A stretch of 64,000 bases of DNA from an uncultured Christensenellaceae bacterium (GCA_910587685.1 CAJUMY010000003.1:64600-128599); one strand, 5' to 3'; counted from the first letter of the stretch, positions 10,593 through 60,184 are shown. Numbers and translations: made by a program. The notes: generated by a model not told the origin, from the sequence alone.

Positions 10593-10820
10593 ACCGGACC
10601 TCCGAATTATTGCTGGAATTAGTAGCTTCATCTTAAAGCTACGGAGCGAAAAACTCTTTTTCGGCTCTTCGCTCCCTAATATATTATATTAAATCGGGTG
10701 GATAGTCAATACATTTTTCAAAAATGCGACCTTTTTACACGAATATTACCTTTATCGACTGACTCTGACGGCTCCGTAAGAAAGTCTCGCTCCTCGATCT
10801 CCCCAAAAAGATCGCCTTCG

Positions 10821-28940: not shown

Positions 28941-30122
28941 TTACTTAATTAGCGCCTTTATTGCATCGACCTTATCGGTCTTCTCCCAACTGAAGCCTTC
29001 TCTTCCGAAATGTCCGTAGTTGGTTGTCTTTCTGAATATCGGCTTCCTTAGATCGAGCGCGTCTATTATAGCGCTGGGTCTCAAATCGAACACCTTGCCT
29101 ATTATCTCTTTTATCTTGTCGTTGCCGAGCTTGCTCGTTCCAAAGGTATTTACCTCGACCGATACGGGTTTTGCAACGCCTATAGCGTACGCGATATCGA
29201 CCTGACACTTATTCGCAATACCGCTCGCAACTATATTCTTAGCGACGTATCTAGCCATGTAGCACGCGCTTCTGTCTACCTTCGTCGGGTCCTTTCCGCT
29301 GAACGCTCCCCCGCCGTGCGGACAGTAACCGCCGTACGAGTCAACGATTATCTTACGTCCCGTAAGTCCGCTGTCCCCGTGCGGTCCGCCTATGACGAAA
29401 CGTCCCGTCGGATTGATATATATTTTGGTATTTTCATCGATAAGATCCTTGTCAATGACCTCTCTTATTACGAACTTCTCTATGTCGTGTCTTAACATAT
29501 CGGTATGCGCGCTGTCGGAATGTTGAGACGAAACGACTATCGCCTCTATCCTCGAAGGTTTGTCGTTCTCGTCATATTCGACAGTTACCTGCGCCTTACC
29601 GTCGGGACGAAGATAGGGAAGAGTTCCGTTCTTGCGGACTTCCGTAAGTCTCTTCGTCAGTTTATGCGCAAGATATATCGGCATAGGCATGAGCGAATCG
29701 GTCTCGTTTGTAGCATATCCGAATACCATACCTTGATCGCCTGCGCCTATTTCGTCATATTTATCCTTGCCGTCGCTATTCTCTTTGTTCTCGAGAGCGC
29801 TGTCAACGCCCATTGCAATGTCCGAAGACTGCCTATCAAGACTCACCACAATAGCGCAAGTATTGCCGTCGAATCCCATGCTTGCGTCGTTATAACCTAT
29901 ATCGAGTATGACATCTCTCGCGATCGACGGTATATCGAGAGTCGCCTTCGTCGTTATCTCGCCCATAATGAGAGCGAATCCTGTGCTGCAACACGTCTCG
30001 CATGCGACGCGGCTCATAGGATCTTCCTTTAGGCACGCGTCCAAAACTGCGTCCGAAATCTGATCGGATACTTTATCGGGATGTCCTTCCGTTACGCTTT
30101 CGCTTGTAAATAATCTCTTCAT
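28941..30122 (-). CDS. metK: S-adenosylmethionine synthase
   Basis: 393 aa. [28 protein letters not shown] signature motifs. Confidence 0.95.
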
Positions 30123-30277
30123 ATGTCCTCCGAAAAATATAGCTATCTTTTCTCGAAAGATAGCTATATGTAGCGATGTTTTCTATCTTCCAAGACAAAT
30201 ATCTTGCAGAATTTAGCACCTTGGATCAGGTTGCTGTGCCTTCCTCGGGTCTGTTCCCTCCGACACTCTAAATAGAA
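30123..30277 (-). promoter_or_regulatory. SAM-I (S-box) riboswitch with terminator expression platform
   Basis: Minus strand reads TTCTATTTAGAGTGTCGGAGGGAACAGACCCGAGGAAGGCACAGCAACC...GGTGCTAAATTCTGCAAG...GAAGATAGAA, matching the S-box core. It is followed by ATAGCTATCTTT-CGAG-AAAGATAGCTAT plus a T run directly before the metK SD. Confidence 0.85.
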
Positions 30278-30296
30278 TGGATATTCAGTTGTAGAC

Positions 30297-52680: not shown

Positions 52681-52717
52681 ATAAAATACGGCGGCGAAAA
52701 GTATTCTTTTCACCACC
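52681..52717 (-). terminator. intrinsic terminator ending the Gly-protein/ABC operon
   Basis: 12-bp stem (GGUGGUGAAAAG/CUUUUCGCCGCC, two G:U pairs), 4-nt loop, then GUAUUUUAU on the minus strand. Confidence 0.7.
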
Positions 52718-52752: not shown

Positions 52753-55152
52753 TTATTCGCCTTTGGCGTCTTGAAGCATTTCGCGCGGATAACGTTTTGT
52801 CTGCGAGAGCGAAATAACGAACGAAACGATAACGCCGACAATTATCGGAATAATTGCAATCGTAGGCGCAAGCATTTCGATGCCCTTTATCGCAACTCTT
52901 CCGATAAGTACCGTCAAGGTATTAGCAAATATCGGAACCGCCGCGTAAGACAATGCAAAACCTATAAGGAACGCTATTAAGTTCATTATAAGTACGAGCG
53001 TAGTATATACGAGTCCGACGCCGCTTCTTCCTACGCCGAGCGATCTCAAGACGCCGTTTCGCCGTCTGTCCGCCTTCGACAACTGAATAACGTAAAGCAA
53101 ATTCATAATAACGGCAGTCGTCATAAAGAGGATCGCCGCGATACCGAACATGGGACCGACTATCTCATAATTCCTCATATAATTCATCGTATCTTCCATC
53201 GCCCTGCCGATTATCTCGGTAGAAAATTCGTTATTCAAGTCGTTATCCATAAGGAACGATATAGCGCTGACGTCATCGCCTTTGTTTTGCCCTATAGCCA
53301 CCGCGAATCCCATATACTTCTCGCCGTGGACCAACTGCCCGACGTCGCCGATATAGGCGGTATTATCCAAACTTTCCCCGCCTTCATCGTCTATATATCC
53401 TACTACTTTGAACTGGTTGAACTCTTCCCCGTAACCTACGTTAAAATAAATACTATCCTTTTCGCTATCGGTAAGACCGTCTACTCCCGTTCCCTTGTCG
53501 GCGCCGAGTTTCGTATCGAGTACCGCCTTGCCGATCACCATCTCTCCGTCGCCTAGCTCTTCTATTTCTTCGCCCGTTAGCGATACTATCCTGCTCTTTT
53601 CCTCTTCGCTTATGAATCTGAACGACGACATATCGAGACCGATCTTCATCCCCAAATATATAGTCAGCTTAAAGCTGTCCGAATAATTATCGAGAAACTG
53701 CTCCGATACTATAGGCGAGCGGTGTCTCAAATATACCGCGCTAAAGGATCTGTCGTCTCTCTCCAGCAAAGCGCTTCCGTTTTTTACGCTCCTATATAGC
53801 TCTTCTTCATAAGTATCGACAACGCCTACTACGGTATAACCGCTCTCTTCGAGCGTTACACCGATGATGTCTTTATATTCCGTCAGTCTGAATTTCCCCG
53901 TATCGACAAGACCGTCGAACTGATATTTCGTTATGGCTATCTCTTTTCGTCCCGCAGGCATTTTCCCCGCAAGAAGAGTATATCCGGAATCTTTAAGAAA
54001 AGCGTCGTTCTCCGCAACGTATACCGTATCGACGGCAAAATCGTAATATTCCGTGTTAACGGGTTTTTCGCGAGTAATATAGAATCTCTCTTCTATGATT
54101 CGCATAAAAGCCTTTTTGCCTTTTATCTCGTTCTCTATAGCTAAACGCTCTTCACTGCTTATCGTTCCGTCTCCTTCTATAAGGGAGATATCTATCTTAG
54201 GCTCGTATACTACGAACATATACTTATCTCCGGCTTCGACAGCCGTATTACGGTAAATGCTCACAACGCCCGTAAAGTAGAAAGACAGAAACAGTATCGC
54301 CGCCAAAAAGCACAGCGTTATTACCGAAAACGCAGATATGCTCTTTCTTATGCTCGACTTAAAACTCGCTGCGCCGAGCAAGAGATGTTCTCTTATATCA
54401 AGCGCGCCGAATCTCTTCTTTTTTTCGTCTTTATTTTCAAAAACATCATTATATGTATCTTTATTTTCCGCTTTTCCTATAAAAGTATCGCTTATTATTT
54501 CTCCGTCTTTCATCTCGACGATCCTATCTGCGTACGCTCTCGCGCTCTCGATATCGTGAGTAACTACTATAACGGCTCTATCCCGAGAGGTCTCTTTCAA
54601 CAGTTCGAAGACTTCTCTTGAATTTTCACTATCGAGATTTCCCGTAGGTTCGTCGGCAAGAAGTACTCCCGACCCTTTCACAATCGCCCTAGCTATCGCA
54701 ACGCGTTGCTGTTCTCCGCCCGAAAGCTCGTAAGGATACTTCTTTTTAACGTCTATGAGACTCACCCTTTCAAGAGCTTCGTCTATCAAAGCAACATCCT
54801 TTTTGCCCGCAAGCGACATCTCGAGTCTCAGATTCTCCTCTACCGTAATACCGCCTATTAGATTGAATTCCTGAAAAACGTAATTGATCTCGTTACGCCT
54901 TATATCATCCTTATCCCTTTCCTTAAGCGTAGCGTAATCGTAATTGCCGAGCGATACGTCTCCGCTATCGAAAGGTATGATGAGTCCTATGGCGTTAAGC
55001 AACGTCGATTTTCCGGAACCGCTTTCCCCAACTATCGCAGTCATGCCGACGTTCCCTATCTCGAGATTGACGTTATCGAGCGCGAGAACGTCATCGCCGC
55101 CCTTTATCTTATAGATTTTAGTGAGTCCCCTTATCTTGATAATACTGCTCAT
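52753..55152 (-). CDS. MacB-type ABC transporter, fused ATPase + FtsX permease (paralogue 2)
   Basis: 799 aa. Walker A GESGSGKST, LSGGEQQR, Walker B LLADEPT. TM1 near residue 270, an extracytoplasmic domain of about 360 aa, and 3 C-terminal TMs. Confidence 0.85.
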   Translation of the reverse strand: MSSIIKIRGLTKIYKIKGGDDVLALDNVNLEIGNVGMTAIVGESGSGKSTLLNAIGLIIPFDSGDVSLGNYDYATLKERDKDDIRRNEINYVFQEFNLIGGITVEENLRLEMSLAGKKDVALIDEALERVSLIDVKKKYPYELSGGEQQRVAIARAIVKGSGVLLADEPTGNLDSENSREVFELLKETSRDRAVIVVTHDIESARAYADRIVEMKDGEIISDTFIGKAENKDTYNDVFENKDEKKKRFGALDIREHLLLGAASFKSSIRKSISAFSVITLCFLAAILFLSFYFTGVVSIYRNTAVEAGDKYMFVVYEPKIDISLIEGDGTISSEERLAIENEIKGKKAFMRIIEERFYITREKPVNTEYYDFAVDTVYVAENDAFLKDSGYTLLAGKMPAGRKEIAITKYQFDGLVDTGKFRLTEYKDIIGVTLEESGYTVVGVVDTYEEELYRSVKNGSALLERDDRSFSAVYLRHRSPIVSEQFLDNYSDSFKLTIYLGMKIGLDMSSFRFISEEEKSRIVSLTGEEIEELGDGEMVIGKAVLDTKLGADKGTGVDGLTDSEKDSIYFNVGYGEEFNQFKVVGYIDDEGGESLDNTAYIGDVGQLVHGEKYMGFAVAIGQNKGDDVSAISFLMDNDLNNEFSTEIIGRAMEDTMNYMRNYEIVGPMFGIAAILFMTTAVIMNLLYVIQLSKADRRRNGVLRSLGVGRSGVGLVYTTLVLIMNLIAFLIGFALSYAAVPIFANTLTVLIGRVAIKGIEMLAPTIAIIPIIVGVIVSFVISLSQTKRYPREMLQDAKGE

Positions 55153-55156
55153 ACGC

Positions 55157-57700
55157 TCACCCCTTATATCGCGTCATATCGGCAGGATTTGCCTTCTTCA
55201 TTCTGTACAGCGGATAGATAGAAACAACTATCGACACAGCTACGGCTACCAAAAGCATTATCGGGAAATGCCATGCCGCGACCCTAAACGGCGAAACCAA
55301 ATATACCGCGCCGCTGTAAAAATACTTGGAGAATGACGCTAACACGACCGAAAGAACGTAACCTAAGATCAGCGATAATATTATAACAAATACCGCCTCG
55401 ATAGCGTATATGAGCCCGACCTCGTTACCCTTCGCTCCCATGCTTCTGAGTATTCCCGCTTCGCGTTCGCTATCGCGTATCGTCATATCGACAAAGCCTA
55501 TCATAAGGATCAGTCCTATTACTCCGAATATCAGCATAACGGCATAACACAACATATTCGTAAGAGCTATAATATTACCGCCGACATATACGTCGTGAGA
55601 TCCTAAAAATAAGAGGTTAAATCCCGAATTCTTCGCGACTTCATATTCAAGCAACTTTCGCACCGTCTTTATATCTTCCGCTCTGTTATTACCGTCAATA
55701 AGGAGCGTTGCGCAGCTCGGGTTTTCAATGCCTGCAGTTTTAAGCGGCATAACGTCGTCGTTTATGTAGCTATATGATGAAGAATCATACCCCGCGCGAT
55801 AATATCCCACTACTTTTACCTCGGCATTATAGTCGCCGTAGAATTTCATATTAAAATAACCGTCATTCTTTATTTTATCGGGGATCTTTAGAACGTGATT
55901 ATCCCAATCTTCATAATAGACGCTTGTAAGAAAATTGTCTTCAATATAATCCATACATTCCCGCCAATCGAGGATCGCTTCACCGGCTTCTAAATGACGC
56001 TTATTACCGTCAAAAAATTCAACTAATTCTTCATTATATAGAACGTCGTTACTGCTTTTTATCCTTTCTTCCTTTTCAACAATGCTATAATTGAACCCCA
56101 TAGCAACTATGTCTTCTAGCGTATATCCTTTGTCCATTAAAAGACTTTCGATAAAAAAATTCAACTCAGCGCTTTTGTAGTTGATATCGGTATAGGTTAT
56201 GCTGACAGATATATTATCAAGAATTTCTTTATTAGCAACAATGATAGAGTTATGTACCGAATACTCATTATCTATCATCATCGAATTTAGACGACCATGA
56301 ATCAAATCCCAATTTTCATTTCCCAAAATAGCCTTATATCTTTCATTTAAGTGCGTGTCTACTATGCCAACTATTGTAAAATTTTCATTTTCACCATATT
56401 TAGAAATTTTTACAAAAGAGCCAATTATGTTTTTTATATTTATTTTTGTAAAATATTCAAGACATTCTGCCACATATTTGGTAACAGCTATTTCTCTGTC
56501 TGTATTCGGCAATCTTCCTTCTATACAATCGAATTTATTTTCCACGTCGCCTTTAAGAAGACAGTTAAAATTGCTATGATAATATCTGCTATCATCATCC
56601 GTCCAAGACTCCATTTCTTTACCGTTAACCGTGGAAATGCTTACTCGACTATTAGGCCCGCAATATATAGGAATAACTTTATCGTTTCCTATTTGATTTT
56701 TAAGTTTTTTTATCAAATCACTGTTTAATTCACGTACACTCCCAATAGGCCTTATTTCGTCCCTATTTGTCTCATATTCTATCATAACCTCGCTTTCCTG
56801 TATCTCATACAATCTATCTACAATAAGAGACGCTTTGTCATATCCTATACCTTCAAGCGTTACGCCTATCGCCGCGAATACCAATACGAAGAGGAGCATA
56901 GTAACTACAAGCCGTCCAAATCGCTTCTTAACGTTCTTCATAGCTATCATAAAGCTTACTTTCGGCGATATTACTCGGCTCTTTACGTTATGGTCTCTTT
57001 GCGTTTTCTTATTTTCGTCACTATTTCCGTAAACTTTTTCGTCGTTTACGACTTTCCCATCCTGTATTCTTATTATGCTATCGGCGTACTCGCGCGCCAG
57101 CTCTTCGCTATGCGTTACCGTAAGGACAAGACTTTCTTTCGAAAGCTCTCTTATGAGTTCGAAAATATTCTTCGAATTTTCGCTGTCAAGGTTTCCGGTC
57201 GGCTCGTCAAGTAGAATGATATTGGGGCCCTTAACTATAGCTCTCGCTATCGCTACCCTCTGCTTCTGTCCGCCGGAAAGTTCTTCTACCTTCCGTTTCT
57301 CCATATCGTAAAGTCCGACTTTGTTAAGAGCTTCTTTTACCAGCGAACTGCTCTCCGCCTTCTCGCTCATACTGAGCCCCATCGCGACGTTCTCGCCCAC
57401 GGTAAAGCCGTCAAGGAGATTATAGCTTTGAAATACTATCCCGATATTATGTAATCTGAATACGTCTCTTTCTTCGCTCTTTTTAGAAAATATATCAAAA
57501 CCGTCTATTACGACCCGACCTTCGCTCGGCGTATCTAGACCCGCTATTATATTGAGAAGCGTAGACTTACCAGAACCAGACTTCCCCACTATCGCGACAA
57601 GTCCCCTATCGCCTATATCGAGATCAACGTCTCTAAGAGCGTCTACTCTGACGCTCTTTTTCGAAACGTAACTCTTCTTTAGTCCTGATATCTTTATCAT
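55157..57700 (-). CDS. MacB-type ABC transporter, fused ATPase + FtsX permease (paralogue 1)
   Basis: Walker A GKSGSGKST, LSGGQKQR, LLDEPT. TM1 at about residues 271-292, an extracytoplasmic domain of about 420 aa, and 3 C-terminal TMs. Start at the ATG 9 nt after AAGGAG (MIKISGL...). Confidence 0.85.
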   Translation of the reverse strand: MIKISGLKKSYVSKKSVRVDALRDVDLDIGDRGLVAIVGKSGSGKSTLLNIIAGLDTPSEGRVVIDGFDIFSKKSEERDVFRLHNIGIVFQSYNLLDGFTVGENVAMGLSMSEKAESSSLVKEALNKVGLYDMEKRKVEELSGGQKQRVAIARAIVKGPNIILLDEPTGNLDSENSKNIFELIRELSKESLVLTVTHSEELAREYADSIIRIQDGKVVNDEKVYGNSDENKKTQRDHNVKSRVISPKVSFMIAMKNVKKRFGRLVVTMLLFVLVFAAIGVTLEGIGYDKASLIVDRLYEIQESEVMIEYETNRDEIRPIGSVRELNSDLIKKLKNQIGNDKVIPIYCGPNSRVSISTVNGKEMESWTDDDSRYYHSNFNCLLKGDVENKFDCIEGRLPNTDREIAVTKYVAECLEYFTKINIKNIIGSFVKISKYGENENFTIVGIVDTHLNERYKAILGNENWDLIHGRLNSMMIDNEYSVHNSIIVANKEILDNISVSITYTDINYKSAELNFFIESLLMDKGYTLEDIVAMGFNYSIVEKEERIKSSNDVLYNEELVEFFDGNKRHLEAGEAILDWRECMDYIEDNFLTSVYYEDWDNHVLKIPDKIKNDGYFNMKFYGDYNAEVKVVGYYRAGYDSSSYSYINDDVMPLKTAGIENPSCATLLIDGNNRAEDIKTVRKLLEYEVAKNSGFNLLFLGSHDVYVGGNIIALTNMLCYAVMLIFGVIGLILMIGFVDMTIRDSEREAGILRSMGAKGNEVGLIYAIEAVFVIILSLILGYVLSVVLASFSKYFYSGAVYLVSPFRVAAWHFPIMLLVAVAVSIVVSIYPLYRMKKANPADMTRYKG

Positions 57701-57746
57701 GACATTTAACTCCTTTTCTGTCAAATATGTCTATTCTATCTTATCT

Positions 57747-58985
57747 TTACTCAAACTCATAGTTGCCGTTAAATAAATCTTCAAATCTTATGGCATTAGT
57801 TATGTATTCCATAGTTGTTTTTCCTTTTGCTCCATCAGCCCCATCTTTTCCCTTTTCTCCTGCTTTATCAAACAATCCTTTAGCACCTCCAGAGCCACCG
57901 GCACCGCCATTGCCACCGTCGCCACCTGTTCCCCATCCTCCATTTTTTCCATCTAAAATTGTCAGCAAACTTTTATCTCCGAATTGACTATGGTCGTAGT
58001 TAGTTATAGTGGCTACACCGCCTCGTGACGCTTTACCTCCGTCACCGCCGTCTCCGCCATTTCCACCATTACCGCCATTTCCAGCATTTTTTGTTTTAAT
58101 ATTGTCATCAGCGCCATTGCCACCGTTGCCGCCATTGCCGCCGTTTCCTCCGTTTCCGCCTTTTCCTCCGTTACCACCGGTAACAGAAATTGTTCCTTGT
58201 AAATACCAATTTATCTTAACCGCAAAAATTCCTATTCCTCCGTTTGTCATCGCATTTCCACCGTTTTTTCCTTTTCCTCCAGCGCCGCCTATACCTCCGT
58301 GCTTTGCATAATCATCAGTATTAACACCGTCGCGTCCTACCTCTCCTACTGCACCTTCCGCCCCGTCAACGCCGTTCATACCATCTATTCCAACAATCTT
58401 TGTATACGACCCCTTCGCAGTTCTTATTCTAAGCGTATTACGAACATATATTACACAGTAATCGGCAGGTTTGAATTCGTCGAAACCAGCTAGAGCGTAA
58501 TTTTTAATCTCGTTCTTTCCCTTAAACGTAATGTCATACTCGCAATCTACCGCCTTAAAAACGTTAGGATTACCGCTACATTTGAGACCGTCAACAGTAA
58601 AATACAGCGGTCGCTGATTTCGTTCCTCATTTGTAAACATTATACTGCTAAGATGAGCGTAAACTTCTTTTGAAGTATCATATCCGTAAATAATAACGTG
58701 GTTTACGTTTGCCGGAATTGTAAAAGTCATTACCATTGCTAAACTGCTCTTCTGATTTCGCAAATCAATTATTATACCGTCTGTTTTACAATTCTCCACA
58801 TCTTTCTTACTGAAATAATCAACTATTTCATAAGTCGCATATTCTGAAATAGCAGGAATATCCGCCTCTAGCGACTCCGCTTCGACGGAACTCATTCCTA
58901 TACTGCCGATTGCGACGATAGCAGTCGCTAAAAAGCAAAGAATGACAACAATAGAAGTCAAATTCTTCTTTTTCGTTAAACGCAT
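57747..58985 (-). CDS. secreted/anchored glycine-repeat protein (G-X-Y and GGN runs)
   Basis: N-terminal hydrophobic signal/anchor (IVVILCFLATAIVAIGSIG), a beta-rich domain of about 160 aa, then a Gly-rich half at residues 201-391. GGGAGG SD. Start is either ATG 58991 or 58985. Confidence 0.8.
   Translation of the reverse strand: MRLTKKKNLTSIVVILCFLATAIVAIGSIGMSSVEAESLEADIPAISEYATYEIVDYFSKKDVENCKTDGIIIDLRNQKSSLAMVMTFTIPANVNHVIIYGYDTSKEVYAHLSSIMFTNEERNQRPLYFTVDGLKCSGNPNVFKAVDCEYDITFKGKNEIKNYALAGFDEFKPADYCVIYVRNTLRIRTAKGSYTKIVGIDGMNGVDGAEGAVGEVGRDGVNTDDYAKHGGIGGAGGKGKNGGNAMTNGGIGIFAVKINWYLQGTISVTGGNGGKGGNGGNGGNGGNGGNGADDNIKTKNAGNGGNGGNGGDGGDGGKASRGGVATITNYDHSQFGDKSLLTILDGKNGGWGTGGDGGNGGAGGSGGAKGLFDKAGEKGKDGADGAKGKTTMEYITNAIRFEDLFNGNYEFE
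57819..58391 (-). repeat. in-frame triplet (GGN / G-X-Y) codon repeat tracts
   Basis: Plus strand shows runs such as gccaccgttgccgccattgccgccgtttcctccgtttccgcc, which are imperfect 9-nt periodic repeats. Confidence 0.8.
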
Positions 58986-59051
58986 AATCATTTCCTCCCG
59001 AATATTGTTAAAGTTTTAGACACCAAGCGTATTGACCCTCTTTATGACTAC

Positions 59052-59080
59052 ATTTTACCACTTATATTATTCCAATGCAA
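59052..59080 (-). promoter_or_regulatory. candidate promoter of the Gly-protein/ABC operon
   Basis: Minus strand TTGCAT-17 nt-TAAAAT inside a very AT-rich 340-bp spacer. Confidence 0.5.
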
Positions 59081-59326
59081 CAGTGAAAACATAATTTTAT
59101 AAAATCTTAATATTATTAATTTCGCATAAATAGTCTTTTTCTTAAGTAATATTTTACTTGAAATTACAAAATTGATAGTAAAAAACCAATAATTAGTCAA
59201 TATCATCATTTGCAAAAATTCAAAATCATCAAAATATATGTATCATTATAAAAAAATTTTAATATTTTTTACAATAATGCTTTAATTAATGAAATATAAT
59301 TCCAAATAACGTATAAATAATGCCAA

Positions 59327-60184
59327 CTATCTCTCGATAAGTTTTTTCATATCTTCGGGCATATTGCTAAAAAGCTCTATCCTCGCATTTGTCACCGGAT
59401 GCGTAAAAGAGATATAACAGGAGTGGAGAGCGTGACGCGTTATCTCGTCTATCCTGCCTCCGTACATATCGTCGCCCATAAGAGGACAGCCGAGATATGC
59501 CGAGTGAACTCTTATCTGATGAGTTCTGCCCGTGTCGAGCTCGAAAGATACTAAAGTCCTATCGTCAAAACGCTCGACGACTTGAAAATTCGTTCTCGCA
59601 TACTGACCGTCCGCGCTAACTTTCCTTAGCACGCTGTTTTCGCTGACTCTGCCTATCGGCTCATCTATAACGCCGCTATCCGTCGTCAAAATGCCGTGGA
59701 CCACGGCGAGATACTTTCTCGTGATAACGCTCTTTTTCGAAGAGAAAACGCTGTGCGCATAGGCGTTCTTCGCGACAGCCATAAGACCCGACGTCTGCCT
59801 GTCAAGACGGTTTATCGGTCGATATACGAAATCTCCCCATACCTTTTGAAGCGCGTTCGCAAGGCTCTTTCCGTAATGAAGTCTCGTCTCTATGACCGCA
59901 ATATCCGCGCTCTTATCTATAACGGCGATATCTTCGTCATCGTAGACTATATTCACCTCTTTGTCGAATATATCTCTCGGCTTAGGATAATCCTCTAAAC
60001 ATACGTATATGCTATCGCCTTTTTTAATATTGGCGACAAGGATCGCATCATGCCCGTTGACCTTTACGAGCCCGAGTCTCGACTTCAGTCTCTTGATGAG
60101 CTCGGAAGAATACCCGTAATATCTGAGATTATCCTCGACAGTTCCGTCGAATACGGCAAAATACAGTAGCTCTCTCTTATTCAT
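59327..60184 (-). CDS. RluA-family pseudouridine synthase
   Basis: NRLDRQTSGLM catalytic-Asp motif, HQIRVH, and an S4-like N-domain. Start moved to MNKRELLYF, which overlaps the upstream stop by 8 nt. Confidence 0.8.
   Translation of the reverse strand: MNKRELLYFAVFDGTVEDNLRYYGYSSELIKRLKSRLGLVKVNGHDAILVANIKKGDSIYVCLEDYPKPRDIFDKEVNIVYDDEDIAVIDKSADIAVIETRLHYGKSLANALQKVWGDFVYRPINRLDRQTSGLMAVAKNAYAHSVFSSKKSVITRKYLAVVHGILTTDSGVIDEPIGRVSENSVLRKVSADGQYARTNFQVVERFDDRTLVSFELDTGRTHQIRVHSAYLGCPLMGDDMYGGRIDEITRHALHSCYISFTHPVTNARIELFSNMPEDMKKLIER

Follow-up and report, generated by a model that had tools for sequence, protein, structure and literature searches.

What does a glycine-rich, apparently exported protein have to do with two membrane pumps encoded immediately downstream of it? 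This question is raised by a locus in a 64,000-nucleotide (nt) stretch of DNA (referred to as the window) from a mouse-gut Clostridia bacterium. Three genes lie head to tail on the minus strand, in open reading frames (ORFs) at 57747-58991, 55157-57724 and 52753-55152; with the starts that we consider most likely, they span 52753-58985. Gene 1 encodes the glycine-rich protein. Genes 2 and 3 encode paralogous proteins in which an ATP-binding cassette (ABC) ATPase is fused to an FtsX-type permease. An earlier annotation of the window (the original prediction) had suggested that the three genes could form one dedicated system. The reading that we prefer, with a probability of roughly 0.5, is that the operon joins a general envelope mechanotransducer (the pumps) to a variable surface protein (the product of gene 1), and that coupling between the two is at most optional.

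We found that the pumps also occur without gene 1. A sister species (L031) that is 82% identical to the window in DNA sequence has both pumps and the same flanking genes and is missing gene 1. In this species, the pseudouridine-synthase gene is followed by a 285-bp AT-rich spacer and then by the two pump genes, gene 2 first; homology to the window is lost at 59344 and returns at 57700. The gene 2 products of the sister species and the window share 81% identity by global alignment, and 76% over the outer-domain and membrane region in a database search. Because the pumps also occur without it, gene 1 is probably an add-on rather than part of a dedicated machine.

We also looked for linkage in more distant relatives of the pumps. 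Using a regular expression and a hidden Markov model (HMM), we found an ORF encoding a glycine module (the C-terminal domain of the gene 1 protein) at none of 26 loci encoding distant fused ABC-FtsX proteins. These loci comprise 13 from species-representative genomes, 6 from metagenomes and 7 from look-ups of P0101, P0104, P0105, P0106 and P0117. The metagenome scan also returned two copies of the window's own locus, which are not counted among the six. Further look-ups gave a longer stretch of the contig encoding P0003 (see below) and the context of a cluster 99% identical to P0100, which was already among those examined. The distant pump relatives are 800-1,146 amino acids (aa) long and mostly encoded by single genes. 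In the reverse direction, there was no such pump beside the glycine-module proteins P0004 and P0077 (contexts L005 and L006). Conserved linkage of the three genes, proposed as a check of the original prediction, is thus largely absent in the sister species and at the 26 distant loci.

Within the species, the arrangement is shared and its parts vary. The three-gene order is present in L023, L024, L001 and many mouse-gut runs, and gene 1 is identical or near-identical across many of these runs. In contrast, the gene 1 allele of another strain (L002) is only 70% identical to that of the window in DNA sequence, whereas the flanking genes are 96.8-99.5% identical. The number of synonymous substitutions per site (dS) between the two gene 1 alleles is 1.54, compared to 0.02-0.085 in the flanking genes, and the ratio of nonsynonymous to synonymous substitutions (dN/dS) is 0.16 overall and 0.10 over aa 1-199. 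Based on these values we infer that gene 1 exists as two anciently diverged alleles, each functional and under purifying selection, that have been swapped by recombination. The L002 allele has an in-frame TAG (10766-10768) at the position of the K256 codon of the window (412-aa numbering), and the pumps of L002 are intact. This TAG could be a real pseudogene mutation, a sequencing error or a strain polymorphism.

Part of one pump varies in a similar way. Within the insertion in the gene 2 outer domain, a hypervariable patch (aa 481-600; 55901-56260, minus strand) is 55-82% identical to L002, whereas gene 2 outside the patch is ~100% identical, with small dips at aa 41-80 and 641-680. The dS value is 0.67 in the patch compared to 0.02 in aa 1-480. 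In strain X25, 55948-56168 is replaced by 216 nt that are less than 80% alike, a third variant of the patch. X25 pairs this variant with a gene 1 of the window type. The patch in gene 2 thus assorts independently of the allele of gene 1. The exchange of old surface-protein alleles, and of a portion of a pump outer domain, among gut strains that are otherwise near-identical is typical of targets of phage or of host immunity.

A less likely but serious alternative is that the locus is instead a dedicated module, in which a pair of MacB-like pumps with enlarged outer domains acts on glycine-module proteins. The pumps might pull the N-terminal anchor of such proteins out of the membrane, much as LolCDE extracts lipoproteins. 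Alternatively, they might push the proteins through the wall or release them through it, or hold them on the outer domain (as FtsEX does with EnvC, PcsB and CwlO). This notion is favored by an unrelated operon (L032, 1000-12034) that encodes a fused ABC-FtsX pump, a lipoprotein and two glycine-module proteins, separated by gaps of 24, -1 and 14 nt. The pump in that operon is 800 aa long and 26-30% identical to the products of genes 2 and 3 over their full length. It is followed by a 246-aa Flg_new lipoprotein, a 1,939-aa surface protein and P0003, a 677-aa Flg_new-repeat protein that is the best match to the glycine module beyond the species. Both of the last two proteins terminate in a glycine module. 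The order differs between the two independent operons: module protein, pump, pump in the window, and pump, lipoprotein, module proteins in the other. We estimate, roughly, that the adjacency of P0003 to a pump would arise by chance about 1% of the time. In addition, a long hydrophobic segment is present near the N-terminus of the gene 1 protein, of P0003 and of the 1,939-aa protein, the three genes of the window are co-transcribed (see below), and type VII ABC systems are known to act on extracytoplasmic proteins (PMC5985334). Gene 1 and the outer-domain patch of gene 2 also both differ between L002 and the window.

Most of the comparative results described above argue against a dedicated module. 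The pumps of the sister species are intact without gene 1, those of L002 are intact beside a gene 1 with a stop codon, none of the 26 distant pump loci encodes a glycine module, and the glycine-module genes in L005 and L006 have no such pump nearby. Thousands of members of the glycine-module family are from Bacteroidota and other lineages, mostly in pump-free contexts, and X25 combines a gene 1 of the window type with a different patch. The original interpretation is thus supported only in part: an obligate, dedicated three-gene system is not supported, and the second linkage leaves room for optional coupling.

Two other features of the second operon were apparent. Its 1,939-aa protein contains leucine-rich and Flg_new-type repeats and, as read by eye, a possible lipase-like GHGSGG motif, and upstream is a gene for a 220-aa membrane protein with a single pass.

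Genes 2 and 3 have the architecture that the original prediction had described, that of MacB. Gene 2 (55157-57700, minus strand) encodes an 847-aa half-transporter with an ATPase domain (aa 1-225), a first transmembrane helix (TM1, aa 264-284), an outer domain (aa 285-715) and TM2-4 (aa 716-847). Gene 3 (52753-55152, minus strand) encodes a 799-aa paralog with an ATPase domain (aa 1-222), TM1 (aa 271-293), an outer domain (aa 294-668) and TM2-4 (aa 669-799). Across their full length, the paralogs share 29% identity. By hydropathy, each has a single helix, then an outer domain (431 aa in gene 2, 375 aa in gene 3), and then three helices. These lengths agree with the predicted ~420 and ~360 aa and are about twice that of the MacB periplasmic domain (~200 aa; PMC5985334). 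The added sequence would correspond to an insertion of roughly 180-230 aa, presumably exposed, that recombines between strains.

The ATPase motifs (Walker A, Q-loop, signature, Walker B and H-loop) are intact in both proteins: GKSGSGKS, VFQ, LSGGQ, IILLDEP and TVTH in gene 2, and GESGSGKS, VFQ, LSGGE, VLLADEP and VVTH in gene 3. In Pfam searches, gene 2 matched ABC_tran (125 bits) and FtsX (57.4 bits). Gene 3 matched ABC_tran (106 bits) and, under the cut-off of 25.5 bits, FtsX (22.0 bits, E 1.8e-4). The nearest ATPase sequences in the PDB are those of MacB (5lil) and LolD. An AlphaFold2 model of gene 2 aa 252-847 had a mean predicted local distance difference test score (pLDDT) of 52.9, with values of ~80 in the helices and 74-84 in a conserved, membrane-proximal motif of the outer domain (G-R-L-P...I-A-V-T-K-Y...V-G-I-V-D-T); this MacB/FtsX-like stretch is recognizable in the outer domains of the pair. 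A word-indexed search with the gene 2 outer domain returned 2 proteins, and 19 with an alignment, so the alignment available to AlphaFold2 was shallow. Foldseek matched the gene 2 model with a probability of 1.0 to 5xu1, MacB (5nik, 5gko and 5lil), YtrEF (9o9x), LolCDE, HrtBA, BceAB, YbbAP and FtsEX, with Spr0694-0695 (5xu1) as the top match (E 1.7e-8). Together, the sequence matches and the model make it well supported that genes 2 and 3 belong to the type VII (MacB-type) ABC superfamily. What is new is the arrangement within this known superfamily: fused, tandem half-transporters with doubled outer domains and a recombining patch.

Several better-known transporters share some of these features. 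As in MacB, an N-terminal ATPase is fused to a four-helix FtsX permease with the outer domain between TM1 and TM2, and mechanotransmission, as described for MacB and type VII transporters, would be expected for genes 2 and 3 likewise (PMC5985334). Unlike MacAB-TolC, the pumps are in a Gram-positive host, have outer domains of 431 and 375 aa rather than ~200 that do not match MacB_PCD, and are two tandem paralogs rather than the product of one homodimeric gene. A tripartite MacAB-TolC pump was rejected; the gene table of the syntenic region in L002 has no adaptor or duct gene among the neighbors. Spr0694-0695, YknYZ and YtrEF (9o9x) are likewise type VII pumps of a single-membrane cell, but their permeases have outer domains of normal size and are not fused to the ATPase, which is its own polypeptide. 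The adaptors Spr0693 and YknX adjoin Spr0694-0695 and YknYZ, whereas none is annotated beside genes 2 and 3.

LolCDE resembles the pair in having heterodimeric paralogous FtsX-type permeases; LolD is among the best matches to the ATPases, and the permeases are among the Foldseek matches. LolCDE extracts membrane-anchored proteins. It differs in that it serves a Gram-negative lipoprotein pathway and its ATPase is separate, and gene 1 does not have a lipobox. In BceAB-type modules, the ATPase is a protein of its own, the permease has 10 helices and carries its outer domain between TM7 and TM8, and a BceRS two-component system is encoded next to them. This type was rejected; in the window, the ATPase is fused to a four-helix permease, there is no kinase or response regulator among the neighbors, and BceB was a low-ranked Foldseek match.

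The annotated neighbors in the syntenic L002 gene table include no MacA/HlyD adaptor, TolC or two-component system. They are a pseudouridine synthase, DNA_binding_1 (methyltransferase-like), a polysaccharide deacetylase, an amidohydrolase, DUF1846, a ribose-phosphate pyrophosphokinase, a metallo-beta-lactamase-fold protein and Rho. Two of the distant fused ABC-FtsX genes, encoding ~990 aa (L021, 9167-12936; L034, 6422-10190), have a conserved micro-synteny of their own. An ICMT/PEMT-like methyltransferase and SDH_alpha are encoded upstream, glycosyltransferase and ATP-grasp clusters downstream, and a protein of 1,600-1,700 aa that has no Pfam match on the opposite strand.

We turn now to the protein encoded by gene 1 (57747-58985, minus strand; 412 aa). 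Its N-terminus (aa 1-36; 58878-58985, minus strand) has KKK followed by a 22-residue hydrophobic stretch and VEA|E. Hydropathy peaks at aa 14-32 (414-aa numbering), and AlphaFold2 placed a helix at aa 7-27. The original prediction had called the protein signal-anchored. The hydrophobic N-terminus fits that description, but the VEA|E end allows cleavage, and this segment could be either a cleaved signal peptide or an anchor. The only cysteine in the N-terminal region is preceded by V-I-L at positions -3 to -1, and so there is no lipobox. A predicted beta-rich domain follows (aa 37-199; 58389-58877, minus strand), in which AlphaFold2 placed strands at low confidence (pLDDT 35-62); only the orthologs P0001 and P0002 align to it.

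The remainder is the glycine-rich module (aa 200-392; 57810-58388, minus strand), which is predicted to be a bundle of polyproline-II helices. Glycine content is 35% in aa 200-395 compared to 5% in aa 1-199. There are six segments with glycine at every third residue: aa 199-222, 230-244, 270-293, 302-319, 346-372 and 376-390. The repeat features listed in the original prediction were all present. These are eight uninterrupted G-X-Y triplets (aa 199-222), GGN-type runs (aa 270-291, 303-317 and 354-367), and the short strands TISVT, VATITNY and LLTILD that separate the glycine segments. The DNA encoding the GGN runs (57883-58179) has a 9-bp tandem periodicity. A public assembly contig (L001) ends inside the gene 1 repeats, and the exact 412-aa protein was absent from a collection of 15 billion sequences. 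Because of these two findings, gene 1 is probably under-represented or truncated in public annotations. There were no matches to gene 1 in Pfam (also at E<=10), NCBIfam, PHROGs or PADLOC, and among PDB sequences it matched only artificial Gly-Ser linkers. A tblastn search against plasmids and phages, with the low-complexity filter on, gave no match.

Although gene 1 as a whole has no database family, its module does have relatives. The module aligns collinearly over ~190 residues with more than 70 proteins, and an alignment of 71 sequences has 34 glycine columns that are at least 90% conserved, with a spacing of 3. Because of this alignment and these conserved columns, we consider the module to be a real conserved domain rather than loose low-complexity sequence. 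Searching cluster representatives among 1.84 billion sequences with a profile of the module gave 10,897 at E<=1e-3, 4,408 at E<=1e-10 and 348 at E<=1e-30, and the top matches were secreted Bacteroidota proteins of ~260 aa. The top family members had no Pfam match, some members had sub-threshold matches to PF01391, and the names in the sources were 'hypothetical' or 'collagen-like protein'. The family is thus large and has no annotation or characterized member. Some members are fusions to caspase-like peptidase domains (P0008, P0060 and P0154), and a subfamily of ~440 aa has no signal peptides (P0039, P0016 and P0054). The module appears to be a general scaffold used both inside and outside the cell.

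The predicted fold of the module is unusual. With the family alignment, AlphaFold2 modeled the module at pLDDT 80-96, with almost no helix or strand assigned by DSSP. The top Foldseek match to this model was 7jjv, a springtail antifreeze protein that is a nine-helix polyproline-II bundle (E 4.9e-4, probability 0.85), followed by the snow-flea antifreeze protein (3bog and 2pne). Among viral models (BFVD), collagen-like and gp38-like proteins were among the lower-ranked matches. One BFVD match, A0A3G4ZNF8, is named 'DUF7932 domain-containing protein'; neither gene 1 nor the best family members had a Pfam match, and a literature search returned no mention of the name. The model therefore predicts the rare glycine-rich polyproline-II helix bundle, in line with the likeness to PGRS and polyglycine-II that the original prediction had pointed out. 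Solved natural examples of this fold are the springtail antifreeze proteins, Obg, acetophenone carboxylase, phage gp38 and ALK/LTK. Natural polyproline-II bundle domains are few; the same fold has been predicted for PE_PGRS proteins, and such bundles act as scaffolds in S16 gp38 (10.1101/2023.11.25.568672; PMC13243192).

The comparison with other glycine-rich proteins is informative. Gene 1 shares period-3 glycine runs, of 15-27 residues, with the polyproline-II bundle proteins (springtail and snow-flea antifreeze proteins, S16 gp38, ALK/LTK and Obg). As with gp38, the module is at the distal end of long surface proteins and the gene is polymorphic between strains. Unlike those proteins, gene 1 has no detectable sequence homology to the group and mixes GXY segments, GGN runs and short beta strands. 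A PE_PGRS protein was rejected, as gene 1 has no PE domain or any Pfam match, and the host is a mouse-gut Clostridia bacterium rather than a mycobacterium. The original prediction had also raised a collagen-like repeat. The eight uninterrupted G-X-Y triplets are like those of collagen-like proteins (PF01391; BclA and Scl). Unlike the repeats of such proteins, the runs in gene 1 do not have the length that a stable triple helix requires. They alternate with GGX runs and strands in a pattern conserved in the family. There was no match to PF01391 at E<=10 and the longest tract is eight triplets, and we rejected a collagen triple helix.

A skeptical view of gene 1 is that it does not encode a folded protein at all but is a low-complexity ORF or a decaying pseudogene, such that only the pumps matter. 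It belongs to no database family, the L002 allele has an in-frame stop, assemblies break within its repeats, and the exact protein is missing from the large sequence collection. However, alleles separated by a dS of 1.5 have a dN/dS of 0.16 (0.10 over aa 1-199), the gene is identical or near-identical in many mouse-gut runs, and RNA contigs cover it. The ~190-aa module is also collinear in more than 70 proteins and confidently modeled. It seems very improbable that gene 1 is not a real gene.

The original prediction had also offered a toxin with self-protection. In this reading, gene 1 would encode a secreted antagonistic protein (a toxin or bacteriocin) and the pumps would protect the producer, by analogy with AS-48EFGH, YknXYZ with SDP, and the ABC transporter of lactococcin 972. 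MacB homologs have been linked to AS-48 and SDP (PMC5985334). The order of genes fits: here, as in the lactococcin-972 cluster and AS-48EFGH, a gene for a secreted protein is beside FtsX-type ABC genes. The ATPase also resembles TIGR03608 (the lactococcin-972-group ABC family), which is the best match of the gene 3 ATPase (196.1 bits; 188.7 bits for gene 2). However, both scores are below the cut-off of 254.85, and LolD, FtsE and DarD score about as high. The ancient polymorphism of gene 1 would be consistent with a toxin, as would the persistence of the pumps where gene 1 is lost or broken, which is how orphan immunity genes behave. In contrast, gene 1 matches no toxin or bacteriocin family. 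The glycine module terminates multi-domain LRR (leucine-rich repeat) and Flg_new surface proteins and is also present in cytoplasmic-looking proteins and caspase-like fusions, a distribution that is more scaffold-like. Moreover, variation in the pump patch does not follow that of gene 1. The pumps are also fused four-helix permeases with giant outer domains, unlike those of lactococcin 972 and AS-48. Since the layout and a sub-threshold TIGR03608 match are all that point to it, we consider this explanation improbable. An anti-phage defense system was rejected as well, as the PADLOC matches reflected only generic ATPase similarity.

Whatever the function of gene 1, the three genes appear to be expressed together. 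The layout is as originally predicted, with a gap of 46 nt between genes 1 and 2 (22 nt if gene 2 starts at a TTG) and 4 nt between genes 2 and 3. The listed ORF of gene 1 begins at 58991 and encodes 414 aa. The most likely start is M3 (58985), giving 412 aa, because GGGAGG is 8 nt upstream and the orthologs P0001 and P0002 begin there (MRLTKKK). The most likely start of gene 2 is the ATG at 57700, giving 847 aa, because AAGGAG is 9 nt upstream and homology to the sister species resumes exactly at 57700. This ribosome-binding site is in the spacer between genes 1 and 2 (57701-57746, minus strand), in which no terminator was predicted.

A plausible promoter for the operon is the candidate sigma-70-type sequence TTGCAT-17-TAAAAT (59052-59080, minus strand), which has a TG ahead of the -10 (extended -10). 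It is present as originally predicted, but its -35 is weak. A promoter scan missed it because the -35 fits the consensus at only 3 of 6 positions. Another promoter-like sequence, TTGACA-17-CATGAT (57696-57724, minus strand; 10/12 positions and a TG), runs across both the TTG 'start' and the actual ATG of gene 2. We rejected it as a promoter for gene 2, and it is probably a chance match. At the other end of the operon, a scan found an intrinsic-terminator-like hairpin (52690-52717, minus strand) with a 12-bp stem containing 6 G-C pairs, a loop of 4 and a T-rich tail, in agreement with the predicted terminator. The scan found no terminator-like site between the three genes.

RNA contigs from three metatranscriptomes span both junctions, as the proposed check for co-transcription called for. 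The junction between genes 1 and 2 is crossed by contigs from X26 (57298-57808), X28 (57685-58092) and X30 (57503-57755), and that between genes 2 and 3 by contigs from X26 (54493-55635) and X30 (52908-55666). In all three, coverage was nil at 59036-59272 and contigs began within gene 1, consistent with a transcript start near the proposed promoter. These results support co-transcription of the three genes as one unit. Elsewhere in the window, a SAM riboswitch (RF00162, 72.5 bits; 30180-30278, minus strand) is upstream of an ORF at 28941-30122.

How might the locus work if the preferred reading is correct? Genes 2 and 3 would be a conserved chromosomal pair of fused ATPase-FtsX half-transporters with a history separate from that of gene 1. 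Their products would most likely form a heterodimer, as in LolC/LolE, in which ATP hydrolysis in the cytoplasm moves the outer domains (mechanotransmission) and so does work outside the membrane. Gene 1 would be a strain-variable accessory cassette directly upstream, with its own promoter. Its product would be exported by the Sec pathway and either anchored by its N-terminus or released, with the C-terminal module forming a rigid distal polyproline-II bundle. This bundle is probably a surface-exposed scaffold or binding tip, a role modeled on the phage gp38 adhesins and on the predicted domains of PE_PGRS proteins. The gene 1 protein may use the pump or dock on it, but such a link would be optional and not what defines the locus.

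Several points weigh against this reading. The second operon is an independent and tight linkage of a pump to glycine-module proteins and suggests that the association did not arise merely by chance insertion. In the window, the gene 1 cassette provides the ribosome-binding site of gene 2 and the sole promoter in evidence, so that expression of the pumps now depends on it. The differences between L002 and the window, in gene 1 and in the patch of gene 2 alike, could be a sign of co-adaptation. The metatranscriptome contigs lack strand information and may include DNA. As for the pumps, a heterodimer is suggested by analogy. As to the Porter (and usually Sabre) subdomains expected in an outer domain of this superfamily, Pfam MacB_PCD gave no match to either of the two outer domains at E<=10 (one relative, P0105, scores 16.4 bits against a cut-off of 27), and the model of the gene 2 outer domain beyond the membrane-proximal motif is poor, with pLDDT below 50 there and below 40 in the insertion.

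Our results bear on two groups of proteins. Among type VII ABC transporters, which perform mechanical work beyond the membrane, little is understood about those of Gram-positive bacteria; the tandem pair described here is a tractable variant. A structure and function for the glycine module would fill a gap in annotation, as its 4,408 representatives carry only the names 'hypothetical' or 'collagen-like'. It is conceivable, although we think it unlikely, that pumps with enlarged outer domains are a Gram-positive machine for deploying or holding anchored proteins that are tipped with a polyproline-II bundle. If so, these proteins would be a new class of client for type VII ABC mechanotransmission, and the pumps would provide the first functional context for an unannotated family with thousands of members. 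The swapping of tip alleles and of the exposed pump patch between strains would then reflect pressure from phage or from host immunity.

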